Assembly (NCBI GenBank): GCA_963774265.1
Contig: CAVZDU010000008.1
Location: forward strand, 32,001 to 96,000
Source: an uncultured Chloroflexia bacterium
GTDB lineage: Bacteria > Chloroflexota > Anaerolineae > CG2-30-64-16
DNA length: 64,000 nt
Direction of reading: 5' to 3'
This document shows positions 24,107 through 49,820 of this stretch, in pieces (positions within the stretch are counted from its first letter, which is position 1; the number at the start of each line of letters is the position of its first letter). The translations under genes were made by a program, and so were the position numbers. The notes below the pieces were generated by a model. The model searched no databases. It saw nothing but the letters and a program-made list of their open reading frames with translations, and was not told the origin of the DNA.

Positions 24107-24176
24107 TTGACAAATGTGAGCCCAAGTGATAGTATGTGCATGCAATTAAGTTACTTATCATTCACATATGTGAATG
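24107..24176 (+). promoter_or_regulatory. Promoter of the BMC locus with palindromic operator
   Basis: TTGACA (24107)-N17-TAGTAT (24130) with extended TG; perfect 18-bp palindrome CATTCACATATGTGAATG at 24159-24176. Confidence 0.7.
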
Positions 24177-24338
24177 CCCTATTCCGACGGACCTTTGTAC
24201 CATCCCTGAATTGCAGCAGGTCAGTCAAGCTGGATCGCGAACGGGTGATCTCCCCTTGATTGCCTCGCATTCACCCCACGGCGTAGTTCCGTGGACAGTT
24301 GTCCCTCATTCACTGTCAGGATCGGAGATACTGACGCC

Positions 24339-26424
24339 ATGCGACAGGCTATCGTCTCAGAACCCCTCATCGATGCGAGGCTCGGGCTACCGCCCGCGCG
24401 CCTCACAGACATGCTCTACAAGATGCACCTCACGCGTATTTTCGAGGAATCAGCCTTCGAGCAGTACGCGCTCGGCAAGGTGCACGGCACGATGCATCTC
24501 TGCGCCGGGCAGGAAGCCGTGGCGATCGGTGCGATTGGCGCCCTTCGCCCGGATGACCTGATCATCTCGACTCACCGCGGCCACGGCCACGCCATCGCCA
24601 AGGGGCAGGACATCAACACGATGATGGCCGAGCTGCTGGCTAAGGAGACCGGTGTCTGCCGGGGTCGCGGCGGCTCGATGCACATGGCCGATGTGACTCT
24701 GGGCAGCCTGGGCGCAAACGGCGTCGTGGCCGGCGGCCTGCCGCTGTCGGTGGGCGCCGGGTTGACCCTCAAGCTGCAGGGCGGCGACCAGGTGTGCATC
24801 TGCTTCTTCGGCGATGGCGCATCGAACGAAGGCGCCTTCCACGAGAGCATCAACATGGCCGCTGTCTGGAAGCTGCCGGTCATCTACCTCTGCGAAAACA
24901 ACCAGTACGGTATGTCCAGTCGGTCAAGCACGTCATGGCGGCTGCCGATATCGCCGACCGCGCGTTGGCCTACGGCATCCCCGGCGAGACGGTCGATGGC
25001 ATGGACCCGCTGGCCGTCTACGAGGCCGTGAAGCGGGCGACAGCGCACGCCCGCTCGGGCAATGGCCCGGTGCTCATCAACGCCGTCACCTATCGCTACT
25101 ACGGCCACTCGAAGAGCGACAAGCAGCGTCTACCGCACCAAGGAAGAGGTCGAGACGTGGCGGGCCAGGGATCCGCTCGTTACGTTCCGCGATCGTCTGA
25201 TCGCTGACGGCGTTCTGACCGGCGCCGATGCCGCTGCCTTGGTCGAACAGGCTCAGAAGACGATCGACGACGCCATCGCCTGGGGCGATGCCAGCCCGGA
25301 GCCGTCGGTGGAGCACCTGACGGACGATGTGTACGCCGATGAGCCGGACGTGCTGGCTGCGCCGGAGCACGTGCTGCCGGCATGGATCAAGCAAACCTTC
25401 GGCCCCGCCACACGCCATCAATCCTGACCCCGGCGCCCGTGAGATCAGCTACTCTGAAGCGCTGCGCGAGGCGATGCGCGCAGGCGCTGAAAGCCGATCG
25501 ATCGTGTCTACCTGATCGGCGAGGACATCGGCGTTTACGGCGGTGCATTCGGCGTGACGCAGGGGCTCGATCGAGGAGTTCGGGCAGGAGCGCGTGCGCG
25601 ACACCCCCATCTCGGAGAACGCCATCGCGGGCGCGGCGGTGGGCACCGCGGTGACCGGGATGCGCCCCATCGCCGAGATGCAGTTCATGGATTTCCTGAC
25701 CCTGGCATGGAGCAGTTGGTGCTCCAGGGCGCCAAGATCCGCTACATGTTCGGCGGCAAGGCCAGCGTGCCGATGGTGCTCCGCCTGCCGGCCGGGTCGG
25801 GCACCGGCGCGGCGGCTCAACACTCCGAGAGCCTGGAGTCGTGGCTGGTGAATGTGCCGGGTCTGAAGGTGGTGGCGCCCAGCACACCGTACGACGCCAA
25901 AGGCTTGCTGCTGGCTGCCATCGCCGACAACAACCCGGTGATGTTCGTCGAGAACAAGCTGCTCTACAAGGCCAAGGGTCCCGTGCCGGAGGAACCCTAC
26001 ATCGTCCCGCTTGGCAAAGCTGCAATTCGGCGTCAGGGAAGCCATGTCACCGTGGTGGCGACGTCGATCATGGTCGTGCGTGCGCTGGAGGCGGCGCAGA
26101 AGCTGGCCCCGGAGGGCATCGAACTGGAGGTGATCGACCTCCGCACGCTCAAACCGTACGATGGCGAGACGATCATCGCTTCGGTGAAGCACACCGGACG
26201 GCTGCTGATGGTCCACGAGGCGCCGCTGATCGGCGGTTTCGGCGGCGAGATCGTCGCCATGATCGCCCAGAGCCCGGCGTTCGCCTACCTGGAAGCGCCC
26301 AATCGTGCGCCTGGGCGGCGCCGATGTGCCCATTCCCTACAACCCAAAGCTCGAACGTGCCGCGGTGCCGCAGGTCGAGGACATCGTCGAGGCGGCGCGG
26401 CAGCTTGCCCGCACCGAGATTTAG
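24339..26424 (+). CDS. TPP-dependent acetoin/2-oxoacid dehydrogenase E1, alpha and beta apparently fused (multiple frameshifts)
   Basis: Alpha: [23 protein letters not shown]...ENNQY, YRYYGHS; beta: [35 protein letters not shown]; alpha sequence runs into beta with no stop plus RBS/ATG. Confidence 0.85.
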
Positions 26425-26437
26425 CAGGGGAATCCAT

Positions 26438-27873
26438 ATGCCGACCGCTGTGATCATGCCCAAGTTTGAGATGGCCCAGGAGACCGGCAAGGTGGCCACT
26501 GGCTGAAGGCCGAGGGTGACGTCGTCAAGAGAGGGGACGCCATCCTTGAGGTCGAGACCGACAAGGTCACCCTGGAGGTCGAGGCTTTAGCCGACGGGAT
26601 TCTGATGGGCATTACCGCCCGGACCGGTGACGTTGTGCCGATTGGCCAGACCATTGCCTATCTCGTGAAACCCGGCGAGTCGTTTTCCGGCGCAGGTCCG
26701 ACCCCTGCCAGTCGGGCGGTTGTCGATGCAGCGCAGCCGGCGCTATCGCGACCGTCCCACCCACAGGACGCCTCCGGCTCTGGGGATATTGCGCACGCTG
26801 TCTCGGCCTCGCCTCTCGCCGTTCGCCTGGCCGAAAACCTCGGTGTCGACCTGGCGCACGTGAAAGGCACGGGGCTGCGCGGACAGGTCACGCGAGAGGA
26901 TGTGGAGGCCTACGCTGCGTCGCAGCCGTCTCCATCCACGACCGACGATGGTAAAGTGCGCGCCGTGCCAGCCGCTCGACGTCTGGCGCGCGAGCTGGGG
27001 GTGGACCTGCGCAGGGTGGTTGGCACCGGGCCAGAGGGTCGCATCCAGCCGGACGACGTACGCGCGCACCTCCAAGCCACTGCCGTCGAAGGCGCGTCTA
27101 CCGCAGGGACCGCTGAGCCCGTTAGTGTTCAACTCGAGCCTCCCGTGGCATCCGCGATGCTTCCTGGCAGTCCCGCCATCCGCCGTCTGGTGCCGCTGAC
27201 CAACATCCGCCGCACCATCGCGGAACGCATGACGGCCAGCGTGCGTGAAGCGCCCCAGTTCACGGTCAGCCTGGACGCGGACATGACCCGCTCCCTGGCT
27301 ATCGTAGAGGATCTGCGCAATAGCGATGCGGGACCTGCCGGCCAGCCACGCATCACCCTGACCACACTGCTGATCAAGGCCAGCGCCTGGGCGCTGTGCC
27401 AGCACCCAGGCGTCAACGCCGCGTACCAGGATGGACAGGTCGCCGAGTGGGATGAGGTGAACATTGGCGTGGCCACTGCCATCGAGGCGGGATTGATCGT
27501 GCCGGTGATTCACCAGGCCGATCTGCTGGGGATGCGAGGAGTCGCTGCCCGGCTGGCCGATCTGACGAGTCGGGCACGCGAAAACCGGCTCAAGATCGAA
27601 GATCTGCAGGGCGGCACCTTCACCGTGTCCAATCTGGGCATGTTCGGCATCGATCGATTTACGGCCATCCTCAACCCGCCGCAGGCTGCGATTCTGGCCG
27701 TGGGGCGAGTCGCCAAGCGGGCGGTCGTGACCGCTGATGATCGCGTCGAGGTTCGGCCGGTGACCACGCTCACCCTGACCGCGGATCACCGGGTATTGGA
27801 CGGCGTCACAGCCGCGAAGTTTCTGGCGACGATCCAACGGGTGCTGGAGCATCCGGGCTTGTTGATGGAATAA
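26438..27873 (+). CDS. Dihydrolipoamide acyltransferase E2 (one lipoyl domain, two subunit-binding domains; frameshift near 26500)
   Basis: MPKFEM...EVETDKV lipoyl site; ASPLAVRLA and AVPAARRLA PSBDs; [17 protein letters not shown]. Confidence 0.9.
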
Positions 27874-27894: not shown

Positions 27895-28980
27895 ATGTCC
27901 TCAGTACCAATGCTCCAGATTGCGATGGACTACATCACGCTACCCCCCGCGCTGGCGATGGCGATGAAGGTGGCTCCTGAGGTCGACATTATCGAGATCG
28001 GCACGCCGCTGTGTAAGGCGGTGGGCCTGGATGGCATCCGTGCCATGCGTGATCTGGTGGGTCCGGACAAGCTGATCCTGGCGGACTTCAAGAGCCCGGA
28101 TGTCGGCGGGCTGGAGGCCAAAATGGCCTTCGATGCCGGCGCCGACATGATGACTGTGATCGGCGGTGCCGCGCTGGCAACGGTGGAGTCGGCTCTCGCC
28201 GCGGCCAAGACAGCGCATAAAGAGATGCTCATGGAACTAACCGGGGTGCGCGACATTCTGGCCCGAGCCAAGGAGTGGCGGCAGATCGGCGTGGAGCGCA
28301 TGGTGTACCACCGTGGCTGGGACGAGCAGGCCAGCGACCGACAGTGGGTGGAGGAAGACCGCACGGTTATCCGCCAGCTTATCGACATGGGCTTCAAGAT
28401 CACCGTGACGGGCGGCCTCTCGAAACAATTGCTGCCTTTCTTCCAACCGCTGGCTGTGTCTGTGGTGATCTGCGGCCGCGGCATCCGCGAGACGCCTGAC
28501 CCTCGGCAGTCGGCCCATGAATTTCGGATGGAGATGCAACGGTTGTGGGGAACGGGCGGTGTTGTGCCCGCCTTTCCCGGAGGCAAGGTAGCGGCAAACA
28601 CCGCGGTGGAGAATGCGGCAAAAGCGCTCCGCTGGGGCGTAAGTGAGATGGGGCTAACCCTCACGGTCGATGGTCGCGATTGCCCAGGGTGTGACTCACC
28701 ACAACGCTTCTGCTGGGGAAGCCGCGTGGAGGTGGCCGCGCCGGCTGGCGTGAACGCTGGCGATATTGTGGCAAGGATCGCTCAGAATTTCGGACACACG
28801 CCCGCCGTGGCGCGCGGTGGTGACGGGAGTTTCATCCTTGATCCTGCGCAGCTGCCGAATACCACGCCGAACGAGGTGCTCGATTTGCTCCGGGCGGCAG
28901 GCAACGCGTTGCGTGCGCTCGGATGCGCGGTGGACGTGGCTGCCGGTGTTTCGGTAGCGGAAAACATCCTGCGCAATTAG
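27895..28980 (+). CDS. 3-keto-L-gulonate-6-P decarboxylase / hexulose-6-P synthase (OMPDC superfamily) with about 140-aa C-terminal extension
   Basis: LQIAMD, IEIGTP, ADFK..D, ELTG, YHRGWD, MGFKITVTGG, GR.IR, ..LWG follow UlaD/SgbH; extra domain after residue ~220. Confidence 0.82.
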   Translation: MSSVPMLQIAMDYITLPPALAMAMKVAPEVDIIEIGTPLCKAVGLDGIRAMRDLVGPDKLILADFKSPDVGGLEAKMAFDAGADMMTVIGGAALATVESALAAAKTAHKEMLMELTGVRDILARAKEWRQIGVERMVYHRGWDEQASDRQWVEEDRTVIRQLIDMGFKITVTGGLSKQLLPFFQPLAVSVVICGRGIRETPDPRQSAHEFRMEMQRLWGTGGVVPAFPGGKVAANTAVENAAKALRWGVSEMGLTLTVDGRDCPGCDSPQRFCWGSRVEVAAPAGVNAGDIVARIAQNFGHTPAVARGGDGSFILDPAQLPNTTPNEVLDLLRAAGNALRALGCAVDVAAGVSVAENILRN

Positions 28981-29012: not shown

Positions 29013-29336
29013 ATGATGGCACAAACCCACGTGCAGATGACCGCCCTCGGCATGGTCGAGACGCGGGGACTGGTGGCCTCGGTCGAGGCTGCGGATGCGA
29101 TGAGCAAGGTGGCATACGTCCGGCTGGTGGCGCAGGAGGAGATCGGCGGTGGATACGTCACGATCATGGTCCGAGGTGAGGTCGGCGCGGTGCAGGCGGC
29201 AGTGGATGCCGGCGTGGCGGCGGCAAAGCGGGCCGGCGAACTGGTGACCGCGCATGTGATCGCCCGGCCGCACGCCCTGGTGGAGAAACTGCTGCCCGGT
29301 GGCCCGACCCGCGTCGTGCGGGCGCTGGCCGATTGA
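29013..29336 (+). CDS. BMC shell hexamer protein (BMC-H)
   Basis: [22 protein letters not shown]...[17 protein letters not shown]...HVIARPH. Confidence 0.95.
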
Positions 29337-29347: not shown

Positions 29348-29977
29348 ATGGACCTCAGGACCTATGTTCTCATCGACTCCATGCAGCCCCAGTATGCGGC
29401 GCTGACAGGCATCCTGCTGCAGGGTGATACGCCCGTCGAGGGCATGGCGGAAATCTTCATGGAGCTGGCCCCGGCGAGCGACGTATACGAAGTGCTCGAC
29501 GCCGCGCTGAAGACAACCGAAGTCCGGCCAGGCCTGCTGCGGGTCGAGCGTGAGTACGGCACACTGGAGATCCACGGGTTCTTCCAGGAGAACGTAAAGA
29601 CCGCCGGCAGGGAAGCGCTTGTGAAGTTCGGTCTCACCGAGGCCGACCGCTGGAAGCCGGAGGTTGTCTCAGTCAAGACCGTGACCAACGTCGATCCCTA
29701 CGAGGCGCAGCTCGTCAACCAGACCAGCCGGGGCGGTCTTCTGCTCAAGGGTCAGACCTTGTGCGTGATCGAGGTGGTGCCGGCGGCCTACGTGATGCTC
29801 GCCGCCAACGAGGCGGAAAAGGCGGCCAACATCACTCTGGTGCACTACCAGCCCTCGGGCAGATTCGGCCGCCTGTACATCTCAGGCACCGAATCGGAAG
29901 TGCGCGTCGCTCGCGACGCAGCGGTCACTGCGGTCAACAGCCTGCCCGGTGCCACCCGCGGCAGAGGGGGCGCATAA
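29348..29977 (+). CDS. BMC tandem-domain shell protein, permuted double-stacking type (BMC-T, CsoS1D/CcmP-like)
   Basis: LRTYVLIDSMQPQ, EREYGTLEIH, AANEAEKAANI, GRFGRLYISG resemble permuted BMC-T proteins. Confidence 0.88.
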   Translation: MDLRTYVLIDSMQPQYAALTGILLQGDTPVEGMAEIFMELAPASDVYEVLDAALKTTEVRPGLLRVEREYGTLEIHGFFQENVKTAGREALVKFGLTEADRWKPEVVSVKTVTNVDPYEAQLVNQTSRGGLLLKGQTLCVIEVVPAAYVMLAANEAEKAANITLVHYQPSGRFGRLYISGTESEVRVARDAAVTAVNSLPGATRGRGGA

Positions 29978-29978: not shown

Positions 29979-30302
29979 GTGAAGACCTTCATTTCCGCCA
30001 CGGACATCGAGGCGCTGGCCGCACAGGGTGTGCGCGAGCTGATGGTCGACGAGGATACGGTGCTGACGGCTGTCGCCCGGGAGGCAGCCGCGCAACTCGG
30101 GGTAAAGTTGGTAGCGCCTGGAGCGACAAGCTCTGCCCGACCGCCCGCGCAACCGGCGGCCGTCTTCGGGAAACCGAAGGGGTGCCAGCACGGGCCCCTG
30201 GGTGGGGAACGCAATTCAGCACCCACCCCGAGCGCGAAGGCTGCCAACCCGGTCGTCGACCAACTGATCGGTGCTGTAAAACAGCTCTATGGGCGGAATT
30301 GA
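29979..30302 (+). CDS. Small BMC-associated protein: EutQ-N-like domain, low-complexity linker, C-terminal amphipathic helix
   Basis: KTFISATDIE...TVLTAVAREAA; Pro/Ala linker; NPVVDQLIGAVKQLY; GTG start 2 nt after BMC-T stop. Confidence 0.65.
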   Translation: MKTFISATDIEALAAQGVRELMVDEDTVLTAVAREAAAQLGVKLVAPGATSSARPPAQPAAVFGKPKGCQHGPLGGERNSAPTPSAKAANPVVDQLIGAVKQLYGRN

Positions 30303-30321: not shown

Positions 30322-30613
30322 ATGATTATCGCCAAAGTGATGGGCGCGGCCGTCGCCTCAGTCAAGATGGACGCGCTCCAGGCGACCAAATTGCTGGTCG
30401 TAAGCCCGACAGATGCGCAGGGCAACCCAAACGGCGCCCCATTTCTGGCAGTCGACTTGGTCGGCGCGGGCGAGGGTGAACTGGTGATGGTCAGCCAGGG
30501 CATCCTCCGCACGAATGGCAGTGGCCAACGACCGTTCGCCGGTTGATGCCGCGATCATCGGTATCCTGGACTCCCTGCGCTACAACGGGGAACTGGCCTT
30601 CAGGAAGGAGTAG
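30322..30613 (+). CDS. BMC vertex pentamer (BMC-P, EutN/CcmL family; frameshifted near 30500-30535)
   Basis: MIIAKVMG...KLLVV...[18 protein letters not shown]; C-terminal [12 protein letters not shown] in a shifted frame. Confidence 0.9.
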
Positions 30614-30617: not shown

Positions 30618-30944
30618 ATGACGCAGCCAAACGATCTCCAGACAACGAACGACGACATGGACCCGGGGATGCGAGCCCTCGGAATGATCGAAACGAAGGG
30701 GCTGGTGGCCTGCATCGAGGCGGCCGATGCGATGGTGAAGGCCGCCAACGTGAAACTGTTGGACCGCCGGGCCATCGGCGGCGGTTACATGACGGTGATG
30801 GTGCGCGGCGATGTGGGCGCAGTGCGGACCGCGTTGGAGGCGGGCAGCCAGGCCGCGCGGCGGCTCGGCCAGGTCGTCTCGGTACGCATCCTGCCCAGCC
30901 CGCACCTGGATCTGGAACATATCCTCCCTGAGATTGTGGAGTAG
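30618..30944 (+). CDS. BMC shell hexamer protein (BMC-H) with short N-terminal extension
   Basis: [26 protein letters not shown]...[17 protein letters not shown]...LPSPH. Confidence 0.95.
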
Positions 30945-30947: not shown

Positions 30948-31800
30948 GTGAGCGCGCCACGTATAACGCCAGCCAGGTTGCGGACCAAAAAGAGCCGCGG
31001 ACAGAAGATCACGATGCTGACGGCCTACGACTGCCCCATGGCCTCGTTTATCGACCAGGCCGGGGTGGACATCGTGCTGGTCAGCGATGCGGTGGGCACG
31101 GTGGGCAACGGCCGGCCCGAGGCGGTCTCGGTGACGGTGGACGAGATGATCTACCACACTCGCGCGGTGCGCAACGGCGCCAAGCGCTGCATGGTCGTCA
31201 CGACCCTGCCGTTTGGCTTCCTACAACACCACCGAAGATGCCCTGCGGACGGCGACCCGGCTGATGAAGGAGGGCGGCGCGGACGGCGTGCATCTGGAAG
31301 GCACCCGCCGCGAAGGCGCACCTGGTCGGCGAAATCACGGCTGCGGGCATCCCGGTGATGGGGCACGTCGGCGTGACCAAGCAGAAGATCGTCGGCACCG
31401 GCCGGATCAAGCTGCCCGGGCAGGACGCTGCGTCGGCGCGAAGAGATCATCGGCGACGCGTTGGAGATGGCCCGGCAGGGCGCGTTCTGCGTTGGTGCTG
31501 GAGTGTCTGCCGACTGCGCTGGGACGGATCATCACCAGAGCCTGGACATCCCGACGATCGGCATCGGTTCGGGCGCGGACTGCGACGGCCAGGCGTTGGT
31601 GACGCAGGACATGCTGGGGCTGTACAAGGAAATGTCGCCGCGCTTCCTGAAGGTGTATGCCGATCTGGCGACCACGATGGTGGACGCGCTCGGGCAGTTC
31701 CGCCAGGAAGTCGAAGGGCGGCGTCTTCCCGGCGCCCGAGCACACGTACCCGATCGACGACGGTGAGCTGCGGAAGCTACTGGCGCAGTTGCGGTCCTGA
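30948..31800 (+). CDS. PanB-like (ketopantoate hydroxymethyltransferase family) paralog, several frameshifts
   Basis: KITMLTAYD, VTVDEMIYHTRAV, PVMGHVG, LVLEC, IPTIGIGSGADCDGQALV, PRFLKVY. Confidence 0.85.
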
Positions 31801-34949: not shown

Positions 34950-34962
34950 CTCACTTTGGACA

Positions 34963-35036
34963 GGACCTTCGAGGTCAGCGAGGCCTCGAAGGTCCGGGTG
35001 TGATCTCCAGGGAGGGGGGGTGAAAGCCTCCCTCCC
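34963..35036. repeat. Two intergenic hairpins (REP-like / mRNA-stabilising) after the binding-protein gene
   Basis: GGACCTTCGAGG-N9-CCTCGAAGGTCC (34963-34995); GGGAGGGGGGG-TGAAAG-CCTCCCTCCC. Confidence 0.7.
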
Positions 35037-41639: not shown

Positions 41640-42683
41640 TTGGCCGAGCTGACTTCCAAGGAACGCGTTATTTGCGCATTGCGACGGCAGGAACCGGACC
41701 GGGTGCCGCACTTCGAGTGGCTCGTGGACCGGAAAGTGCGGGACGCTTTCCTGCCTGGCTGCCAGGATCACAACGAGTTTGCGGTTCGCATGGGGCATGA
41801 TGCCGTCCTGGTGGACCCCAATTTCGCCAAGGAGCCGCTGAGCGACGGCCGGTATCGCAGCGAGTGGGGCTACATCGGGCAGAAGACCCAGGAGGAGCAC
41901 GGCATCGAGGTCGAGTCGCCCATCGCGAGCCTGGCCGACTTCGAGCGCTATACCCCGCCCGACCCCCTGGCGCCGGGCAGATACGCATCCATCGAAAAAA
42001 CGTTGGCGCAATACGGCGATCGATACGCAGTCATCGTCCACCTCAACGACGTGTTTTCGCTCCCGCGTTACCTCATGGGCATGGAGAACCTGCTCATGGC
42101 CATCGCAGCCGAGCCTGAGCTCGTGCAGGCGCTGGTGGACATGTCGGTCGATATCAACCTGGTGATGGCGAAGGAGCTCGTCGCACGGGGCGTGAAGATC
42201 GTCTACACGGGCGATGATTATGCATCCAGCAAAGGCCCGCTCATGTCGCCGCGGCACTTCCGCAAGCTCTTTTATCCCGGCCTGTGCCGGGTGATCGGCG
42301 GATTCAAGGAGCTGGGCCTGCTGGTCATCAAGCACACCGACGGCAACCTGTGGCCGATCCTGGACATGATTGTGGATTCTGGCATCGACTGCCTCGACCC
42401 CATCGACCCAAAGGGCGGCATGAGCCTCGCCGAGGTCAAAGCGAAGTACGGCCACCGGATCGCGATCAAGGGCAACGTGGATTGCGCGGACCTGCTGACC
42501 TTCGGCTCCGTTGAGGAGACAGTCGCAGCAACCAAACAGGCGCTGCGTGAAGGGATGCCGGGCGGCGGCTTCATCCTGTCGTCCAGCAACAGCATCCATT
42601 CAGGTGTCAAGCCGGAGAATTATGCGGCCATGATGCGAACAGTGCGCGAGTTTGGGAGCTACCCGCCGCTCGGAGATTTGTAG
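41640..42683 (+). CDS. Uroporphyrinogen decarboxylase/MtaA-CmuA family protein
   Basis: MTSKERV-like start, EPDRVP, LMGMENLL, GDDYA...LMSP, KHTDGN, IKGNVD, GGGFILSSSNSI. Confidence 0.85.
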   Translation: MAELTSKERVICALRRQEPDRVPHFEWLVDRKVRDAFLPGCQDHNEFAVRMGHDAVLVDPNFAKEPLSDGRYRSEWGYIGQKTQEEHGIEVESPIASLADFERYTPPDPLAPGRYASIEKTLAQYGDRYAVIVHLNDVFSLPRYLMGMENLLMAIAAEPELVQALVDMSVDINLVMAKELVARGVKIVYTGDDYASSKGPLMSPRHFRKLFYPGLCRVIGGFKELGLLVIKHTDGNLWPILDMIVDSGIDCLDPIDPKGGMSLAEVKAKYGHRIAIKGNVDCADLLTFGSVEETVAATKQALREGMPGGGFILSSSNSIHSGVKPENYAAMMRTVREFGSYPPLGDL

Positions 42684-42815
42684 ATATGTTGCCCGGCACG
42701 AGCATCCTGAGTGGCGTGGCAGAGGCGTTCCCGCTTGTGAGGTCGAAGGAGGCTCGGCTCTGGCCAAATTGTTGCTCCGCAATCGGCCATTAACCATCCA
42801 TGGTAAGGTGCGACG

Positions 42816-44370
42816 ATGGACTATCTCGTTGGGATTGACCTGGGCTCAACCACGCTCAAGGCGGTCATCTACGATACGCGCGGCAATGTCATTGCCAGCG
42901 GTTGCCGCCCGACCGAGCGCTTCCACCCCGATCCGGCGCATCCGGAGTGGACCGTCTGGCAGCCGGAGCAGATCTGGGGCGGCAGCGCTGCTGCGCTGAA
43001 GGAGGCCATCGCCGCAATCGACGATCCGCGCAACATCAAAGCCGTCGCTGTGACCGGCATGGGCATGGACGGCCTGCCGATCGACGAAAAGGGCAACTGG
43101 CTCTACCCGCTGATCAGTTGGCACTGCCCGCGCACCCAGCCGCAGTTCGAGTGGTGGATCCAGCACATCGGCGCCGAGAAGACCTTCGCCATCGGCGGCA
43201 ACACGCTCTGGCGCTTCTCGACCGCGCTGCGGCTGCTGTGGATGGCCGAGCACGAGCCGGAGATCCTGAGGCGCACCCACAAGTGGCTGCTGATCGAGGA
43301 TTTCGTCAACTTCATGCTGTGCGGCGTGGCCGCGACCGACTACACCATGGCCTCGTGCACGCTGCTGTTCGACCAGCGCAAGCTGAGCTGGTCGGACGAG
43401 ATGCTGGCACTGTCGGGCATCGACCGGCGGCTGTTGTGCGACGCGTTCCCCAGCGGCACGGTGCTGGGCGAGGTCACCCCCGCAGCGGCCGCGGCGACCG
43501 GGCTTGGCGGTCGGCACGCCGGTGGTGCTGGGCGGACACGACTACCTGTGCGGCGCGCTGCCGGTCGGCGCCATCAAACCGGGCGTCATCCTGGACGTGA
43601 GCGGCACCTGGGAGATCGTGCTGGCCTCCATCCCAACGCCGGTGCTGACCCCCGAAGCGCAGCGGACCGGCGTGACGGTCGAGGCACACGTGGCGCGCGA
43701 CCTCTACGCCATCTGGGGCGGCGCGGTCTCGTCCGACATGCTGGAGTGGTATCGCAAGGAGTACGGCTTCGAGGCGAAGCATCAAGGCCGAGACAGTGCA
43801 GCGGCGTGGATTGGGACTTTCTGATGGCGGAGGCGGCGCAGGTCGCCGGTCGGCGCGCGCGGCGTCATGTTCCTGCCGCACATGTCGGGCGCCGGATGCC
43901 CGGTGGTCGACAGCCGGTCGCTGGCGGGCTTCGTCGGCCTGAGCAACTTCGCCACCAAAGGCGACATGCTGCGGGCGATCATCGAGGGGCTGGACTACCA
44001 GTTCCTGGACATCGTCAAGACCATGCAGAATGACCTGGGCGTGCCGTTCGACAAGCTGGTGGTCGTCGGCGGGGCCGTGCGCAACAAGTTCTGGATGCAG
44101 AACAAGGCGGACATGGTCGGGCAGACCATCGAGGTGCCCGGCGGTCGAGGACGCAACGCCGTTGGGCGCGGCCATGCTGGGCGGGCATCGGCGTGGGCCT
44201 TTACCGGGACGAGCAAGACGCGTTCGAGCATGTCTGGAAGCCGGGCGCGACCTACGAGCCGGACCCGCAGGTGACCGCCCGGTACGCCGAGTCTGTTCCC
44301 GATCTACAAGCAGCTCTACGCCGCGCTGGCGCCGATCAGCCATCAGCTCTACGACCAATTCCCGGGTTAG
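42816..44370 (+). CDS. FGGY-family carbohydrate kinase, frameshifted
   Basis: VGIDLGSTTLKA, TGMG, ISWHCPRT, GGHD, SGTW, FLPH, RAIIEG, VVGGA. Confidence 0.9.
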
Positions 44371-44387
44371 GCACCGGAGGTGTCGCT

Positions 44388-45924
44388 ATGGCCAAGTATC
44401 TCATGGGGATTGACAACGGCCTCACCGTGTCCAAGGCCGCGATCTTCGACCTGGAGGGCCACGAGGTCGCGGTCGCCAGCCGCAAGATCGAGGTGCAATA
44501 TCCCAAGCCCGGCTAGACCGAACGGGATATGGACATCGTCTGGCAGAAGACAGCCGAGGCGATCCGCGAGGTTATGGATGCGTCAGGCATCGATCCCTCG
44601 CGAGATCCTGGCCATCGGCAACTCAGGCCACGGCAATGGTCTGTACGTTGCTGGACCGTGACGGCAAGGCATTTCGCCCCAGCATCGCCTCCATGGATAG
44701 TCGCGCGCGCCGACATCATGGACGAGTGGAACCGACCGGGGGCGTGCACGACCAGGCCTTTCCGTTCGTCCTGCAATCCTGTTGGGCCGGCACAGCCGCG
44801 CGTCCTGCTGGCCTGGCTCAAGCGTCACGAGCCGGAGAGCTATCGCAAGATCGGCAAAGTTATGATGTGCACGGATTACATCAAGTACTGCCTGACCGGC
44901 GTGCACACCACCGACTTCTCGATCATCAGCGGCAGCAGCCTGTTCGACTCGCCCAATCGAGGCTATTCGCCGCGACCTGCTGGAGATCTACGGCATCCCC
45001 GAGATACTGCCTGCGCTGCCGCGGCCGGTCTGGAGCCACGAGATCGCCGGCCGGGTGACGCCGGAAGCCGCGCGGCTCACCGGGCTGGCCGTGGGCACGC
45101 CGGTCGCCGGCGGCCTGTTCGACATCGATGCCGCTGCGCATCGGCTCCGGGGTCATCGACGACGGCGTCCTCTGCATCGTCGCGGGCACCTGGAGCATCA
45201 ACGAGGTCGTCACCGACGATCCCATCATCGACAAACGTCTCTTTCTGATGCTCTCTGTTCGCGGTGCCGGGCATGTGGTTGACCCTGGAGGGCAGCGCGA
45301 CGTCGGCCACCAACCTGGAATGGTTCGTGAACAACTTCTGCTGCGAGGAAAAGCAGGAGGCCCAGGCCCGCGGCATCTCGGTGTACGATGTGTGCAACGA
45401 AAAGGTCGCGTCGCTGGCGCCGGGCAGCACCGACGTCATCTTCCACCCCTTCCTGTTCGGCTCCGATGTGCAAGCAACTGCGCGCGCGGGCTTCTATGGA
45501 CTGGGCGCGTGGCACACCAAGAACGCATGTGTTGCGAGCGTTGTACGAAGGGGTCGTCTACGGCCACATGAACCACATCGAAAAGCTGCGGGCGGCCGGC
45601 GCCCAGATCGAGAAGGCGCGCATGACGGGCGGCGGCTCGCACAGCCACGTGTGGACGCAGATGTTTTCCGACGCACTGCAACTGCCGATCGAGGTGCCCG
45701 AGGGCGCCGAGGTAGCCGCGCGAGGCGTCGCGATGGCGGCCGGCGTCGGGGTCGGGGTCTACAACGACTACACCGATGCCGTAGCCAGGGTCGTGCAGGT
45801 CGAACGCAAGCATCAGCCTGATCCCCAGGCCGCGCCCGCGTACCGAGTTCGCTATGGCGAATACGTGAACATACTGGAAGCCATGAAGGAACCGTGGAAT
45901 CGGCTGGCGAAGTTAAGCGCGTAA
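44388..45924 (+). CDS. FGGY-family kinase, L-xylulose/3-keto-L-gulonate kinase (LyxK)-like; in-frame TAG at 44514 and frameshifts
   Basis: MGIDNGLTVSKA, TERDMD..W, SGHGNGLY, GGLFD, AGTWSINE, FHPFLFGS, LYEGV, TGGG. Confidence 0.85.
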
Positions 45925-46070: not shown

Positions 46071-47051
46071 ATGGAAGACGATCGAGTGGATCTCCTGGCA
46101 CAGGTAGCGCTGTGGTACTATGAGGACGGGCTGGATCAGGCCGCGATTGCTGAGCGCATCAACAAATCGCGATCGATGGTTTCGCGCTTGTTGGAGCAGG
46201 CTCGCGAGGCGGGACTCGTTGAGGTGAAGGTGCATTATCCGCTGCGGACCGATACCGAGTTGGAGCGACGGATGTGCATCGAATTTGGCCTGGCAAGCGC
46301 GCATGTGCTGGCCGAGCCTCCGGATGACTACGACGTGCTCCTCAAGCGTCTCGGCGAACTGGGAGCGCGCTGCCTGCAACAGGCATTGCGCCCCGGGGTG
46401 ATCATCGGAGTCAGCTGGGGAACTGCGGTGCACGCCGTGGTGGGCGCAATGCCGAGCACCCCGGTGCCCGATGCAATGGTGGTCCAGCTCATCGGCGCTG
46501 TAGGGCACGGTGATCCGCTCGTGGACGGCGCTGAATTGGGCCGCTGGCTCGCACAAAAACTGCATGCTTCGTTCCGGTTCCTTTCCGCACCGCTGCTGGT
46601 GGAAGATGAAGCGTTGGCTGCGGCGCTGCGCCGGGAACGGACCATTGAAGAGACGCTGGCCATAGCCGCTAGGGCTGATGTAGCGGTCATCGGCATCGGC
46701 ACGCCACAGCCAGAGCTCTCCAGCCTGCTGCGTGCCGGCTACCTTACCCGGGCCGAGCTTAATTCTCTCTTGGAAAACGGAGTGGTGGGTGATGTGGTCG
46801 CCCACCAGTTCGATGAGAACGGCCACTGGCTGGATATTTCGGCTAACCGACGCGCGATTAGCCTGGATGCCGAATCACTACGGCGCATCCCGCGCATCAT
46901 CGCCGTGTCCGGCGGGATAGGCAAGGCCCGCGCCATCCTGGCCGGATTGCGGGGTCGCTACTGCACCTGCCTGGTCACGGACGCCCACGCAGCTCGACAG
47001 GTCCTGGAACTGCACCGGCAAGCAAACGCGGTGCGCTCAATATCGCGCTGA
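46071..47051 (+). CDS. SorC/DeoR-type sugar-binding transcriptional regulator
   Basis: VALWYYEDGLDQAAIAERI..SRSMVSRLL HTH; GVSWGT, IGIG, K..AI..GL.G..LVTD. Confidence 0.93.
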   Translation: MEDDRVDLLAQVALWYYEDGLDQAAIAERINKSRSMVSRLLEQAREAGLVEVKVHYPLRTDTELERRMCIEFGLASAHVLAEPPDDYDVLLKRLGELGARCLQQALRPGVIIGVSWGTAVHAVVGAMPSTPVPDAMVVQLIGAVGHGDPLVDGAELGRWLAQKLHASFRFLSAPLLVEDEALAAALRRERTIEETLAIAARADVAVIGIGTPQPELSSLLRAGYLTRAELNSLLENGVVGDVVAHQFDENGHWLDISANRRAISLDAESLRRIPRIIAVSGGIGKARAILAGLRGRYCTCLVTDAHAARQVLELHRQANAVRSISR

Positions 47052-47155
47052 TCGCTGCCGGTTCCAACGATTGAATACATGAGGAATCGGCAGCACGTCT
47101 GGGCAACCGGATTGAAACGGTCGAAGCCCTGCAACCCGAAGAAAGGTGGCCACCC

Positions 47156-48034
47156 ATGTTCGAGGTCGAACACGTCTTGAGTGTGCAAAACGAGATTGGC
47201 GAGAGCCCACGCTGGGATGCCGACGAACAGGCGTTATACTGGCTGGACATCTGGGACAGCCCAGCCGTCTTCCGCCACAATCCGGCGACGAAGGAATTTA
47301 CCCGTTGGACACCGGGATTGCCTGTGACGGGCCAGGCGAGGCGATCACGCGGCGGCTTCGTGTTCGCCACGCGCAAGGGACTGTACTTCTGGGACGAGCG
47401 CACGGGGCAGAGTCAATTCATCCATGACCCGGAAGCGGACAACGGGCCCGTCCGCTTCAACGACGGTTCGGCCGACCGGATGGGCAGGTTTTGGGCGGGC
47501 TCCACCTATGCCGACGACCAATTCCGACCGGAAGGTTCGCTCTATCGCATGGACATCGATAGTGCCGTAAACAAGATGGCAGGGGGACTGGCCTGCTCGA
47601 ACGGATTGGGCTGGAGTCCGGACAACAGGACGATGTATGTCACCGCGCAGTTCGCATATGAGCTGCTGGCATTTGACTTCGACCCGAAGACAGGCGCGAT
47701 CACAAACAGACGATCCTTCGCCAAGGTGCCGGAGACAGATGGCCTACCGGACGGGCTGACTGTCGACGCTGAAGGGTGCGTGTGGAGCGCACAGTGGGGT
47801 GGCTGGCGTATCACCCGGTACGATCCGGACGGCAAGATCGAGCGAGTGGTCAAGCTGCCCGTACCGAACCCCACGAGCTGCGTGTTCGGCGGGCCCAATT
47901 TGCGGGACCTGTACGTGACCACGGCGTGGCTGCTGCTCAGCGACGCTGAGCGCCAAGCGGCGCCGGGGTCGGGCGACTTATTCGTAGTTCACACGGATAT
48001 CCAGGGGCTGACGGAGCCCAAATTCGCGGGTTGA
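47156..48034 (+). CDS. SMP-30/gluconolactonase family lactonase
   Basis: GESPRWD, RFNDG, SNGLGWSPD, PDGLTVDAEG, TSCVFGG. Confidence 0.93.
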   Translation: MFEVEHVLSVQNEIGESPRWDADEQALYWLDIWDSPAVFRHNPATKEFTRWTPGLPVTGQARRSRGGFVFATRKGLYFWDERTGQSQFIHDPEADNGPVRFNDGSADRMGRFWAGSTYADDQFRPEGSLYRMDIDSAVNKMAGGLACSNGLGWSPDNRTMYVTAQFAYELLAFDFDPKTGAITNRRSFAKVPETDGLPDGLTVDAEGCVWSAQWGGWRITRYDPDGKIERVVKLPVPNPTSCVFGGPNLRDLYVTTAWLLLSDAERQAAPGSGDLFVVHTDIQGLTEPKFAG

Positions 48035-48083
48035 AAACAAGCCAGACGACCCAACAACCAACCCAAATGGAGCAACATTGACA

Positions 48084-48833
48084 ATGGTTGACACCTTCAA
48101 GACTCGTTTGCGCAACGAGACACTGATCGGACCGATCCTCTCGTTACCGTGTTCCGACGTGGCGGATCTGCTCTCACGAGTCGGTTTCGACTACCTCTGG
48201 ATCGATCTGGAACACTCTCCGATGGACGTGACCGATGCGCAGACCCTAATCCAGGCTGCGGGCGGACGCTGTCCTTCCGTGATACGAGTGCCGGAGGTGA
48301 GCGAAGCGTGGATTAAGAAAGCCCTGGACACCGGTTGCGACGGGATCGTCATCCCCCAGATTCGCTCGGCCGCGGAAGCGCGCGCCGCGGTGGCCTGGTG
48401 CCAGTACCCACCGCTGGGCCGGCGCGGAGCGGCCATGACTCGTGCCCATGGATTCGGTCTCAGCTTCACCGAATATGTTGCGACGGCCAACCAGGACCTG
48501 GCGATCATACTCCAGATCGAGCACATCGACGCGGTGAGCCACATCGATGAGATCCTGCAGACCCCCGGTGTCGCGGCGCTCTTCATAGGCCCGTTTGATC
48601 TATCGGGCAGCATGGGGTTACTGGGACAGATAGCTCACACGGAGGTTCAGGCTGCAATCAGCCAGGTGATCGCAGCAGGACAGGCCGCGGACATGCCCCT
48701 TGGGATCTTTGTGGTCGATGGCGCGTCCGCATCGGCCGCCATCGCCCGCGGCTTTCACATGATCGCACTTGGCACTGACTCATCCTTTCTGCTGACCTCG
48801 GCGCGTGCCGCGCTCGCGGCCGCGAAAGGCTGA
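48084..48833 (+). CDS. HpcH/HpaI (GarL/RhmA-like) pyruvate-forming aldolase
   Basis: FDYLWIDLEHS, IKKALDTG, YPPLGRRG, QIEH, FIGPFDLS. Confidence 0.92.
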   Translation: MVDTFKTRLRNETLIGPILSLPCSDVADLLSRVGFDYLWIDLEHSPMDVTDAQTLIQAAGGRCPSVIRVPEVSEAWIKKALDTGCDGIVIPQIRSAAEARAAVAWCQYPPLGRRGAAMTRAHGFGLSFTEYVATANQDLAIILQIEHIDAVSHIDEILQTPGVAALFIGPFDLSGSMGLLGQIAHTEVQAAISQVIAAGQAADMPLGIFVVDGASASAAIARGFHMIALGTDSSFLLTSARAALAAAKG

Positions 48834-48839
48834 GAGATC

Positions 48840-49820
48840 ATGACCGCTCCACGCGTCTTTGTCACCCGCATTATCCCCGACCAAGGGCTCCGGCTCATCC
48901 AGGACTTCTGCAATGTCGATCTGTGGACCGATGAGCTGCCGCCCTCGCGCGATGTGCTCATGAAGCATGTCCAAGGGATGGACGGCCTGCTCAGCCTGCT
49001 CACGGATCGCATCGACGGCGAGGTGATGGACGCAGCCGGGTCGCAGCTCAAGGTGATTTCGAACCACGCAGTTGGGTTTGACAACATCGACTTGCCGGCC
49101 GCGACCCAGCGGGGCATTCCCGTGGGAAACACGCCGGGTATCCTGACCGATGCAACAGCGGATTTTGCTTTTGCGCTGCTCATGGCCGCCGCCCGGCGCG
49201 TGGTGGAGGGCGAGCGCTACGTACGCGAGGGCAGGTGGAAGACCTGGGGACCTTCTCTCCTGCTGGGACCTGATGTCCACGGTGCAACGCTCGGTCTGAT
49301 CGGGTTCGGCCGGATCGGGCAGGCGATGGCCAGGCGTGGCCGCGGCTTTGACATGCGCGTGCTCTACTATGATCCTTCTGCGTCGCCGGTGGAACCCGGG
49401 CTCAACGCAACTGCCGCGGACCTGGAGACGGTTCTGAGCGAAAGCGACTTCGTCTCGCTGCACACACCCCTGACATCGGAAACACGCGGACTGATGAATC
49501 GGGAGCGGCTCGCGCTAATGAAACCGAGTGCCGTCCTCATCAATACCGCGCGAGGCCCGATCGTCGATGCCGCGGCACTTCACGAAGCGTTAACCGAACG
49601 CCGCATTTTTGCTGCCGCGCTGGACGTGACTGATCCCGAGCCCATCCCCGTCGAAAGCCCGCTTCTGGCGCTGGACAATCTGATCGTAGTCCCGCATATC
49701 GCCAGCGCAAGCGTCGCTACGCGGCAAAAGATGTCCCTGATGGCCGCGAAAAACCTGATCGCAGGGCTGGTGGGCGAACCGCTGCCGAACTGCGTGAACC
49801 CCGAAGTGTATAGACGCTGA
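48840..49820 (+). CDS. D-2-hydroxyacid dehydrogenase (glyoxylate/hydroxypyruvate reductase-like)
   Basis: AVGFDNID, NTPG.LT..TAD, IGFGRIG, INTARG, LDVTDPEP, PHIAS. Confidence 0.93.
   Translation: MTAPRVFVTRIIPDQGLRLIQDFCNVDLWTDELPPSRDVLMKHVQGMDGLLSLLTDRIDGEVMDAAGSQLKVISNHAVGFDNIDLPAATQRGIPVGNTPGILTDATADFAFALLMAAARRVVEGERYVREGRWKTWGPSLLLGPDVHGATLGLIGFGRIGQAMARRGRGFDMRVLYYDPSASPVEPGLNATAADLETVLSESDFVSLHTPLTSETRGLMNRERLALMKPSAVLINTARGPIVDAAALHEALTERRIFAAALDVTDPEPIPVESPLLALDNLIVVPHIASASVATRQKMSLMAAKNLIAGLVGEPLPNCVNPEVYRR

Follow-up and report, generated by a model that had tools for sequence, protein, structure and literature searches.

A conserved seven-gene microcompartment module with a KGPDC-like enzyme and a PanB paralog in a probable sugar or sugar-acid operon of Anaerolineae

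What chemistry might a bacterial microcompartment (BMC) serve when its shell genes lie between a KGPDC/HPS-family enzyme and a PanB paralog, apart from any aldehyde dehydrogenase (AldDH)? This question was raised by a locus at 24.3–49.8 kb of the window analysed here, a stretch of 64,000 nucleotides from an Anaerolineae (Chloroflexota) genome whose assembly is 84% complete in only 10 contigs. Pfam and NCBIfam scans identified a BMC cassette and a sugar operon, all on the + strand. We put a probability of about 0.6 on the reading that the window holds one copy, badly rendered in its assembly, of a conserved and self-sufficient Anaerolineae BMC locus, in which a seven-gene module sits within an operon serving a sugar, polyol or sugar acid, as suggested by an ABC transporter, SDR/MDR dehydrogenases, a lactonase and FGGY kinases.

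The run begins with a fused, TPP-dependent E1 alpha/beta gene of the PDH/acetoin-dehydrogenase-like type (24291–26424). Its fragments matched the Pfam models E1_dh, Transket_pyr and Transketolase_C, and its 712-aa ortholog in the relative G014 matched the PDH E1 alpha and E1 beta models. An E2 acyltransferase with lipoyl, two E3-binding and catalytic domains follows (26438–27873). The cassette itself opens with the intact KGPDC/HPS-family gene (27895–28980), encoding a TIM barrel (residues 1–220) and a C-terminal domain (residues ~228–361). The shell genes are a hexamer-forming BMC-H (29013–29336; PF00936, 90 bits), with PduA, EutM and CsoS1 as its best solved relatives; a tandem-domain BMC-T of the CcmP/CsoS1D (double-stacking) type (29348–29977), with full-length matches to HO-5816, CcmP and CsoS1D and an NCBIfam CcmP score of 208 bits, below the 340-bit cut-off; the pentameric vertex protein BMC-P (30322–30610; PF03319 and a frame map against G014); and a second BMC-H (30618–30944; PF00936, 97.5 bits), 88% identical to its G014 ortholog. 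The complete shell kit in the original prediction was confirmed. The PanB paralog (30948–31800) closes the cassette. A gene of 107 aa between BMC-T and BMC-P (29979–30302), missing from the first reading, is the seventh cassette gene. Its product has weak matches to TIGR02536 and EutQ, a 45-residue domain like the EutQ N-terminus, a Pro/Ala linker, a KPxGCQH motif and a C-terminal amphipathic helix; it is conserved in a 37-sequence alignment and is a candidate scaffold.

Adjoining the cassette are an SDR oxidoreductase (31906–32655) and a CUT2-type sugar ABC transporter (32803–38714) with a disrupted binding protein, an ATPase and two permeases. Further downstream lie a 426-aa gene outside known families (38734–40010), a UlaE/SgbU-type L-ribulose-5-P 3-epimerase with an AraD-like class II aldolase/epimerase fragment (40146–41623), an intact URO-D/MtaA-CmuA-like gene (41640–42683), two FGGY sugar kinases (42807–45924), and four intact genes for a SorC regulator, an SMP-30-type lactonase, an HpcH/HpaI aldolase and a glyoxylate/hydroxypyruvate-reductase-like 2-hydroxyacid dehydrogenase (46071–49820). 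Two URO-D-like genes had been predicted; one was recognized by Pfam, whereas the 426-aa gene had no Pfam or NCBIfam match. Its product resembled URO-D-containing clusters in a language-model search, a lead rather than a finding, and is possibly a remote URO-D-like protein.

The gene order was conserved in other genomes, as 47 of 59 related loci had a long KGPDC gene followed by shell genes. The order was KGPDC/HPS with a 140-residue C-terminal domain, BMC-H, CcmP-type BMC-T, the small protein, BMC-P, BMC-H and PanB. Ten loci had a KGPDC gene of 220–250 aa directly followed by the SDR; one of the remaining two was cut by a contig end and the other was a 36%-identical outlier. The C-terminal domain was found in all 47 shell-bearing loci and in none of the ten shell-less ones, and PanB in all 41 shell loci that reach far enough (0/10 without shell). 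Since the domain, the shell and PanB were absent together from the ten loci, it is the KGPDC-like enzyme and PanB that are linked to the shell. When 53 KGPDC barrels were placed on a tree, the enzymes of shell-less loci formed two clusters nested among those of shell-bearing loci, and shell presence required 2 changes compared to 8.6 expected from shuffled labels. As judged by this comparison, the seven genes form a module whose gain or loss involves all of them at once. Its two enzymes are candidate cargo, and the extra KGPDC domain and the small protein may serve encapsulation. The SDR, conserved next to the cassette, had the same length in shell-bearing and shell-less loci.

The dehydrogenase behaved differently from the other two enzymes that had been proposed to flank the shell. 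The fused E1 is a single ORF of 693–712 aa in close relatives, but distant genomes have separate alpha and beta genes. E1 and E2 were also found in shell-less loci with identical termini and were often not adjacent to the cassette, so nothing marks them as cargo; they are probably a PDH-like part of the pathway in the same regulon, and they are not shell-specific. In three distant genomes, the genes downstream of the cassette always included E1, E2, two FGGY kinases and a URO-D-like gene; a lactonase and an MDR were present in two of these genomes, UlaE in one and SorC in one. The G014 counterpart of the URO-D/MtaA-CmuA-like gene had orthologs with 71–75% identity in three distant genomes, a formate-THF ligase adjoined the URO-D-like gene in one genome, and UlaE orthologs scored above the TIGR00542 cut-off.

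A BMC combining KGPDC/HPS, PanB and E1/E2 was not found described in the searchable literature, which for the 2021 catalog covers its main text (Sutter et al. 2021, PMC8217296). There is nevertheless an appreciable chance, if clearly below even, that the catalog already includes this type of locus under a name such as BUF2, with no function assigned. According to the main text, BUF types are BMCs lacking AldDh, and they share with the locus here a main locus encoding BMC-H and BMC-P, the lack of a pfam00171 AldDh, and BMC-T(dp) proteins; those of BUF2 and BUF3 fall in a clade of uncharacterized BMCs, where neighbouring clades hold members of EUT3 and SPU6 (PMC8217296). BUF2 is limited to one phylum (PMC8217296), and our locus is nearly confined to one. 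Some proteins of the carrier MAGs are in NCBI nr and so may have been in UniProt. However, for Anaerolineae the main text mentions SPU6 alone. It does not contain the terms ketopantoate, hexulose, oxoacid, thiamine, orotidine or pyruvate dehydrogenase, makes no mention of KGPDC/HPS, PanB or E1/E2, and assigns no function to BUF2 or BUF3 (PMC8217296); the name BUF2 was not found elsewhere in the literature searched.

The families of the co-directional run were as originally described, but its genes were not cleanly open. Counted against the intact orthologs of G014, the locus has at least 25 frame shifts or in-frame stops in ~22 kb, which is a lower bound: at least five in E1, one in E2 near 26498 that costs the lipoyl domain its first 20 residues, one in BMC-P near 30500, at least four in PanB, two in the 426-aa gene, and at least four in UlaE and in each FGGY gene. 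The binding-protein gene contains a near-identical tandem duplication of 998–999 nt (32951–33945 and 33950–34944). If the breaks are real, the locus is a decaying pseudogene cluster and no organelle is encoded in this genome. We regard this as doubtful, even though 0 of 16 inspected break sites lay in a homopolymer run of four or more and the ~38 kb of flanks, including an ilv/leu operon, are tiled by unbroken ORFs. Genes were broken throughout the genome (three of four PanB loci, an AldDH on contig C9, PduC and PduG), the assembly reaches 84% completeness in only 10 contigs, and 12.5% of the genome's 22-kb windows had even lower long-ORF coverage. In-frame segments of the broken genes were 62–94% identical to G014, a level similar to that of the intact genes, and in our own tally over the related loci, frame splits clustered in one series of few-contig assemblies (8/17 loci vs 2/42 others). 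Compared to relatives' contigs, single-nucleotide indels were located in E1 at 24916, 25129, 25413, 25499, 25570 and 25704, and in E2 at 26498/26499 in one relative's contig. Orthologous loci in other genomes were intact. The function of the locus may still have been lost altogether in the window's genome; the conserved module described above is encoded by the intact orthologs.

The 361-aa KGPDC-like enzyme is 42% identical to E. coli KGPDC (UlaD), with a TM score of 0.97. It keeps E33, D62, K64, D67, E112, H136, T169 and R192, but R139 is replaced by W; W139 was also found in shell-less relatives and is thus not tied to the shell. It scored 201 and 198 bits with the NCBIfam KGPDC models (cut-offs 250 and 294) and 167.5 bits with HxlA (cut-off 200), below all three. 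At another site, G014 encodes a canonical KGPDC that has R139 and is accompanied by its own UlaE and AraD, making the BMC-linked enzyme a paralog. E112 and T169 are the residues of KGPDC, where HPS has Asp and Ala. PDB titles describe E112D/R139V/T169A KGPDC mutants bound to D-ribulose-5-P. The C-terminal domain has an invariant CPGC...C motif and a predicted fold (pLDDT 85) like the small domain of class V aminotransferases (TMq ~0.7).

The ortholog of the PanB paralog matched TIGR00222 over its full length, with a score above the cut-off. Each genome has three or four PanB paralogs. Relative to three solved PanBs and to four non-BMC paralogs of G012 and G014, the BMC-linked one has T at the D84-equivalent, H at the K112-equivalent and TKQK for TPQ, with two lysines gained, and keeps the E181- and D45-equivalents. 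These replacements and the strict linkage to shell genes distinguish it from canonical PanB, ketopantoate hydroxymethyltransferase. Its 16-residue tail resembles an encapsulation peptide, but it is not specific, since tails were also present on non-BMC paralogs in the same genomes.

The most likely mechanism, though at clearly less than even odds, would have the shell retain a formaldehyde-level C1 unit that is handed from one of these two enzymes to the other, their place inside the shell being predicted from gene linkage. The KGPDC-like enzyme would remove C1 from a 3-keto-hexose-6-P-type substrate as formaldehyde rather than CO2, in an HPS-type retro-aldol reaction; the PanB paralog, as a hydroxymethyl transferase, would capture it on a 2-oxoacid inside the shell, and E1/E2 would oxidise the resulting 2-oxoacid outside. 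The enzyme shares its fold and Mg-enediolate chemistry with HxlA of the RuMP pathway, and HxlA handles formaldehyde, the one small molecule that it and the PanB family have in common. Unlike HxlA, it keeps E112 and T169, which counts against formaldehyde release, as does the regulon's lactonase, which is in keeping with a CO2-releasing route via an aldonic acid. The loci examined showed neither a 6-phospho-3-hexuloisomerase nor any other formaldehyde enzyme, and a THF-linked gene was present in only one of five extended loci (window, G014, G041, G042 and G043).

Alternatively, the enzyme could be a true 3-keto-aldonate-6-P decarboxylase releasing CO2, with the shell confining a labile beta-keto-acid or enediol sugar phosphate instead of an aldehyde and the PanB paralog feeding or following it as an enolising enzyme, such as a 2-keto/3-keto isomerase or an aldolase on a keto sugar acid. 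The conserved E112, H136 and T169, the higher KGPDC than HxlA scores, the lactonase, kinases, UlaE and AraD in the regulon, and the altered PanB active site argue for this. We consider it unlikely, given the sub-cut-off scores, the R139W replacement and the canonical KGPDC operon already present in G014; moreover, we know of no BMC that confines such a compound.

Is the usual core of AldDH and phosphotransacylase supplied from elsewhere? Profile searches of the genome found no AldDH, PduL, DeoC or RuBisCO-large in the window, as predicted, with all matches on other contigs. The absence did not extend to the rest of the genome: contig C6 carries a PDU-type locus with diol dehydratase, reactivase, PduO, PduS, Fe-ADH, a EutE/PduP-type AldDH and PduL. 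In contrast, the 97% complete genome G012 had three BMC-domain matches, all in the cassette locus, which is its only BMC locus, and a whole-genome profile search found neither PduL nor a EutE/PduP-type AldDH; its seven PF00171 genes are six classical ALDHs (447–582 bits) and ProA. PduL was found in none of five carrier genomes. A satellite role, in which the shell and enzymes extend another metabolosome (PDU here) and depend on its core, is very improbable despite the C6 locus and the BMC-domain genes on other contigs of G014, G041 and G043, as the locus encodes a BMC-H, BMC-T and BMC-P of its own, placing it within the catalog's main-locus definition, and G012 lacks any such partner. The comparison indicates that the module can be the sole BMC locus of a genome and would work without the usual core.

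As a self-sufficient locus, the module can be set beside known systems. Like SPU and PVM metabolosomes, whose enzymes carry terminal encapsulation extensions and of which SPU6 also occurs in Anaerolineae, it has a sugar-phosphate C–C lyase as signature enzyme; those systems pair an aldolase with AldDH and often PTAC, whereas the cassette is linked to neither AldDH nor PduL and has a PanB paralog as its second shell-linked enzyme. The operon resembles the ketogulonate route to L-xylulose-5-phosphate and, like the E. coli Ula and Sgb pathways (yiaK-S; UlaD/SgbH, UlaE/SgbU, UlaF/SgbE, LyxK), has a KGPDC fold, a UlaE-family epimerase, an AraD-like gene and FGGY kinases; it would end with L-xylulose-5-P being converted to L-ribulose-5-P and D-xylulose-5-P. 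It differs from them in W139, the scores below the family cut-offs, the added domain and the embedding in shell genes. The proposal of a different organelle chemistry for a rare sugar or sugar acid was partly supported, by the synteny, the complete shell and the coreless G012, but not for E1/E2 as shell-linked enzymes. With these two enzymes in place of the usual AldDH, the cassette points to a new kind of microcompartment chemistry.

Pfam and NCBIfam scans recovered every gene family named in the original prediction, on the + strand between 24.3 and 49.8 kb of the window. Pieces of E1 alpha and E1 beta, E2 and an OMPdecase-family protein (361 aa), the KGPDC-like enzyme, came first, followed by BMC-H, a tandem BMC protein (209 aa), BMC-P, a second BMC-H, PanB and SDR. 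Next were a Peripla_BP_4 binding protein, an ABC ATPase and two permeases, and further on a xylose-isomerase-like TIM barrel, a class II aldolase fragment, URO-D and two FGGY kinases. The last four genes encoded SorC, an SMP-30 lactonase, an HpcH/HpaI aldolase and a D-2-hydroxyacid dehydrogenase. The predicted borders were about right, with an amidase and a protease-nuclease fusion upstream and an ilv/leu operon downstream. Passages of the 2021 BMC catalog (PMC8217296, Sutter et al.) define contiguous genes with BMC-H and BMC-P as a main locus. Two BMC-H (PF00936), one BMC-T and one BMC-P (PF03319) were contiguous in the window, which makes this a main locus. The tandem BMC protein matched H. 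ochraceum BMC-T HO-5816, CcmP and CsoS1D over its full length and is of the double-stacking T(dp) kind.

Three observations concern the neighbourhood of these genes. The downstream branched-chain amino acid operon was intact (window 50092-61634: ilvB, ilvN, ilvC, leuA, a second LeuA/CimA-like gene, leuB and ilvD); its product, 2-oxoisovalerate, is the canonical PanB substrate, and its nearness to the locus is probably coincidental. A 426-aa protein, encoded at window 38734-40010 and in a further locus (L011:389-1669), had no Pfam, NCBIfam or PDB sequence match, and its language-model look-alikes included a 'trimethylamine corrinoid protein 2 family' cluster and a cluster with URO-D in 58% of members. 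The version of the locus in the relative genome G014 held about 10 kb of extra genes missing from the window (L012:9525-10553 and L012:7443-9428 among them), including a C45-family autoproteolytic acyltransferase/hydrolase, an aldo-keto reductase, a second ABC transporter and a second fused E1 alpha/beta (661 aa, 37% identical). An MDR gene also sat between PanB and SDR in G014, a position where the window had none.

Many of the Pfam matches were partial profiles spread over neighbouring ORFs, and therefore the intact proteins of G014, the closest good relative (95% complete), were aligned to the window. The locus had been described as it appeared in the window, and as an arrangement it proved real and conserved (47 of 59 related loci); the window's own copy, however, was damaged, with at least 25 frame changes or in-frame stops. 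At least five fell in E1, one in E2, one in BMC-P, at least four in PanB, two in the gene for the 426-aa protein, at least four in UlaE and at least four in each FGGY kinase, and the break in E2 near 26498 masked the lipoyl domain's first 20 residues. Reading frames stayed open in the KGPDC-like gene, both BMC-H, BMC-T, the small-protein gene, SDR, the ABC ATPase and permease genes, URO-D and the four genes at the end of the locus. The binding-protein gene contained an internal tandem duplication of 998-999 nt (window 32951-34944) with segments 98-100% identical, which reflects either misassembly or a duplication of very recent date.

None of the 16 inspected break sites lay in a homopolymer run of 4 or more, so that a homopolymer cause was rejected. 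This result also speaks for real decay in the window's strain, as do the 38 kb of flanks covered by intact ORFs. Several observations nevertheless make decay the less likely explanation. The whole genome was only 84% complete despite having 10 contigs, splits also occurred elsewhere in it (in three of four PanB loci, an AldDH on contig C9, PduC and PduG), and long-ORF coverage was even lower in 12.5% of the genome-wide 22-kb windows. In-frame pieces of the broken genes matched G014 as closely as intact genes did, and by our own tally split genes clustered in one few-contig assembly series (8/17 loci, vs 2/42 others). The breaks are thus probably errors of assembly. Contigs from two soil-metagenome runs of one study (0.09 and 0.06 of sampled words) had single-base indels relative to the window exactly at the mapped break sites 24916, 25129, 25413, 25499, 25570, 25704 and 26498/9. 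These contigs were mostly 90-95% alike and must therefore come from relatives of the window's strain, so they confirm the map of the breaks and are silent on the cause. Three further PanB-family loci were present in the window's genome (C10 8599-9370, C10 227714-228487 and C2 811581-812330), two of them split across frames. All findings on the cassette and its function rest on intact orthologs.

A pattern scan that covered a single genome for each GTDB species gave 59 loci, and ten G014 proteins were then aligned to each. By their titles nearly all were Anaerolineae or Chloroflexota MAGs, with one Bacteroidota label, one Thermoleophilia label and one outlier from Coriobacteriaceae that was 36% identical. 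A KGPDC-like gene of 350-372 aa was followed by BMC-H, BMC-T, BMC-P, BMC-H and PanB, normally then by SDR, in 47 loci; PanB was found in 41 of these, and in the remaining six the contig ended before its position. Ten loci (L064-L068, L071-L074 and L076) had neither shell genes nor PanB and carried a KGPDC-like gene of 220-250 aa that ended where E. coli KGPDC ends, with SDR directly after it. The two left over were the outlier and a locus cut by a contig end. Thus, shell genes and PanB go together with the 140-residue C-terminal part of the KGPDC-like protein, all three being there or all missing, and the predicted synteny of the shell with the KGPDC-like and PanB genes extends to other genomes. 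A gene for a protein of 107-144 aa lay between BMC-T and BMC-P in every locus. The length of SDR was unchanged with or without a shell, and the termini of E1 and E2 were identical in both situations.

In a maximum-likelihood tree of 53 barrel domains (rows L032, L069, L070, L075, L076, L077 and L078 were left out as frameshifted, truncated or outlier), the shell-less forms made up two clusters nested among the shell-bearing ones, one of them inside a starred 21-row clade. The shell state needed two changes on this tree, compared to 8.6 expected from shuffled labels. The C-terminal domain was present in 7 of 401 genomes evenly sampled from the class, the window's included, and in at least four families. 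A metagenome protein collection gave 862 matches at E <= 1e-10, with at least 116 full-length long forms, those carrying the C-terminal domain, among the best 120 of the 862.

The surrounding operon was less constant. Apart from the window's family, only a few others had E1/E2 adjoining the cassette, and in three other carrier genomes (G041, G042 and G043) a split E1 alpha/E1 beta plus E2 lay a few kb downstream. All three also had two FGGY kinases downstream and a URO-D-like protein that shared 71-75% identity with the G014 ortholog. Two of these genomes had a lactonase and an MDR there, while UlaE and SorC were each present in a single one. The downstream genes listed in the original prediction are therefore in part a conserved regulon. 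By family, its genes provide CUT2 uptake, SDR/MDR oxidation, lactone opening, FGGY phosphorylation and a KGPDC-fold C1-removing step. The same logic is found in the Ula and Sgb routes of E. coli, which end in D-xylulose-5-P. The UlaE-family epimerases of the regulon scored above the L-ribulose-5-P 3-epimerase cut-off, so that a reading of the UlaE-like and AraD-like genes as OtnI and OtnC of a tetronate pathway was unsupported for UlaE.

G042 had a second, shorter cluster (L089, contig C1, ~9.0-15.9 kb, minus strand) about 20 kb from its main cassette. It consisted of a UlaE-like gene, a KGPDC with the C-terminal domain (356 aa, 51% identical), BMC-H, BMC-T, BMC-H, E1 alpha, E1 beta and E2, and was without BMC-P, the small protein and PanB. 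In G043 (L090, contig C32, 2306-5639), one of five extended loci examined, the immediate neighbour of the conserved URO-D/MtaA-like gene encoded a formate-tetrahydrofolate ligase, which faintly hints at C1 handling and may link the locus to C1-folate metabolism.

In nearly all characterised catabolic BMCs a signature enzyme generates an aldehyde for an acylating aldehyde dehydrogenase, with recycling of CoA and NAD within the shell. The original prediction had found no AldDH, PduL or RuBisCO in the window, and this held, as the matches lay elsewhere in the genome. The search of the rest of that genome located both AldDH and PduL in a PDU-type locus on contig C6 (~71.8-88.3 kb, L079/L080), which encoded large, medium and small diol dehydratase subunits, a reactivase, a PduO-type adenosyltransferase, a PduS-like protein, an Fe-ADH, an EutE/PduP-type AldDH, PduL (the only match in the genome) and several shell genes of its own. 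Several genes of this PDU locus looked truncated or split. RuBisCO-large matched only on C7 and C3, with none among the locus ORFs scanned, and the locus is thus no carboxysome.

The PDU locus is not a required partner, because the cassette was the only BMC locus in the carrier genome G012 (97% complete, 10 contigs), where all three BMC-domain matches fell within it and PduL was not found. PduL/PTAC (PF06130) was found in none of the five carrier genomes tested. Seven G012 genes matched PF00171, six of them at 447-582 bits, as classical ALDHs do, and the weak seventh was ProA (593 bits on the proA model). In contrast, for the EutE/PduP-type enzyme of the window's genome the PF00171 score was 87.5 bits and the score on the EutE-type model 611 bits. 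An acylating AldDH of the EutE/PduP type was therefore found neither in the window nor, by score, among the seven G012 genes. The locus has neither the AldDH nor the PduL/PTAC of a canonical metabolosome (PDU/EUT/GRM/PVM/SPU); it is a BMC locus without AldDh, as is characteristic of BMCs of unknown function (BUF).

BUF denotes BMCs lacking AldDh in the passages of the 2021 catalog that treat them, with BUF2 and BUF3 as new types of unknown function (PMC8217296). There, BUF2 is confined to one phylum, the BMC-T(dp) proteins of BUF2/3 fall in an uncharacterized-BMC clade, which also contains EUT3 and SPU6 members in adjacent clades, and only SPU6 is named for Anaerolineae; the composition of BUF2 and BUF3 is given only in Supplementary Data 2 (PMC8217296). 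Passages of the catalog (PMC8217296) and of the BMC Caller paper state that loci without a dehydrogenase imply paradigms still to be worked out, and passages of a Shark Bay preprint mention microcompartments for Planctomycetes and Verrucomicrobia only. Full-text literature searches on BMCs with ketopantoate, PanB, gulonate, hexulose or hydroxymethyltransferase, and under Anaerolineae, dehydrogenase E1, decarboxylase or 'BUF2', yielded no description of this combination. Titles and abstract openings gave nothing relevant on a natural formaldehyde BMC, and literature listings gave nothing relevant on residue roles in KGPDC/HPS. As to the earlier view that this is not a described type, no publication was found with the enzyme combination, but the locus falls under the BUF umbrella. 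It is a bacterial microcompartment, a known kind, and may already be listed as an unexplained type; its enzyme pairing, candidate targeting domain and independence from an AldDH/PduL core make it a new functional variant.

The barrel of the KGPDC-like enzyme was 42% identical to E. coli UlaD in an end-to-end alignment (TM 0.97). E33, D62, K64, D67, E112, H136, T169 and R192 were kept, and R139 was replaced by tryptophan. The motif YHR[GE]WD was found in 40/40 long forms, with H139, R140, W142 and D143 (window numbering) invariant, and in four aligned short forms. The choice of this residue set draws in part on PDB titles, which name the mutants K64A, E112Q, H136A and E112D/R139V/T169A and thereby support these residues as studied positions; the triple mutant was reportedly made to mimic HPS. 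The enzyme scored 201 and 198 bits on the KGPDC NCBIfam models (cut-offs 250 and 294) and 167.5 bits on HxlA (TIGR03128, cut-off 200), and thus classified neither as UlaD/SgbH nor as 3-hexulose-6-phosphate synthase. No SIS-domain gene (6-phospho-3-hexuloisomerase) was seen among the ORFs scanned in the window, G014, G041, G042 and G043. A canonical KGPDC, with R139 and a score above the cut-off, was encoded in a separate G014 operon (L087, contig C73, 4376-9643) together with ABC permeases, an L-ribulose-5-P 3-epimerase (UlaE), a PfkB-family kinase and an L-ribulose-5-P 4-epimerase (AraD), and the BMC-linked enzyme is therefore a divergent paralog.

The terminal extension of the enzyme was present in 47/47 shell loci and 0/10 shell-less loci, as expected for encapsulated cargo. 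Its fold (residues 228-361) was predicted with a pLDDT of 85 and a pTM of 0.80 and resembled the C-terminal small domain of class V aminotransferases (TMq 0.66-0.72, E down to 3.6e-5), in agreement with a weak match to BhcA. Three cysteines were invariant in its motif DGRxCPGC...C, and a search of a protein atlas with this domain gave no usable match. The small protein had a 45-residue N-terminal domain that weakly matched TIGR02536 and the N-terminus of EutQ. A Pro/Ala linker and a KPxGCQH motif followed, and the C-terminal part was an amphipathic helix (VVDQLVxAVxxLxKRGG). A predicted complex between it and the C-terminal domain of the KGPDC-like enzyme scored 0.02.

The G014 ortholog of the PanB paralog scored 276 bits on the panB equivalog TIGR00222 (cut-off 207.55) and thus belongs to the family, but residues conserved in PanB were changed. 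Compared to three solved PanBs and four non-BMC paralogs of G012 and G014, the cassette PanBs read VVTT[LM]PF, HLEGT and TKQK vs D[LM]P[FY], KLEGG and TPQ elsewhere. T and H replaced the conserved D of 'ADLPF' and K of 'VKLEGG' in at least 90% of 26 aligned cassette PanBs; we take these to be the Mg ligand D84 of E. coli PanB and the substrate contact K112. A tail of 16 residues past the end of the solved structures (IDDAELxKLLxQLR) resembled an encapsulation helix. Its reading as a specific encapsulation peptide was weakened by tails on the non-BMC paralogs of G012 and G014, and it was therefore not counted as evidence.

A formaldehyde-level C1 unit is the sole small molecule known to be handled by both the HPS and the PanB families. 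HPS condenses formaldehyde with ribulose-5-P, a reaction that proceeds in the opposite direction in some archaea. PanB provides a 2-oxoacid with a hydroxymethyl group, which comes from methylene-THF or, in a slow reaction, from free formaldehyde. By analogy with this family chemistry, formaldehyde could be released by the KGPDC/HPS-like enzyme and by the PanB paralog. The shell would enclose the C1-removing KGPDC-like enzyme and the PanB paralog, with cargo perhaps recruited by the class V aminotransferase-derived domain and by the small protein as a dedicated scaffold. With the neutral tryptophan instead of R139, the enzyme would be suited to a substrate with CH2OH, not carboxylate, at C1, for which L-xylo-3-hexulose-6-P, made from a polyol or a rare hexose, is a candidate. 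Its cleavage would yield L-xylulose-5-P and formaldehyde, the latter being trapped on a 2-oxoacid by the PanB paralog, or the C1 unit fixed onto tetrahydrofolate, and the PDH-like E1/E2 might oxidise the product of the PanB paralog.

We give a probability of about 0.3 to this reading, a BMC that confines formaldehyde in a relay from an HPS-like lyase (W139) to PanB and runs without aldehyde dehydrogenase, CoA or NAD cycling inside. Against it, E112 and T169 are decarboxylase residues, the lactonase suggests an aldonic acid, the W139 enzyme is also found in shell-less lineages, and no hexuloisomerase was seen among the ORFs scanned in the extended loci. An organelle that releases CO2 or holds a labile intermediate is a slightly less likely alternative, and the remaining probability falls to something other than these two.

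Whatever its chemistry, the locus is a concrete, testable case, with two candidate cargo enzymes from well-understood families, an unusual candidate targeting domain and sister lineages that supply natural 'minus-shell' controls. At least 47 species-level genomes carry it, and metagenomes yielded at least 116 clusters of long-form proteins. If the formaldehyde reading is true, this would be the first natural organelle for the toxic C1 compound formaldehyde and a ready-made template for engineered formaldehyde-handling pathways.
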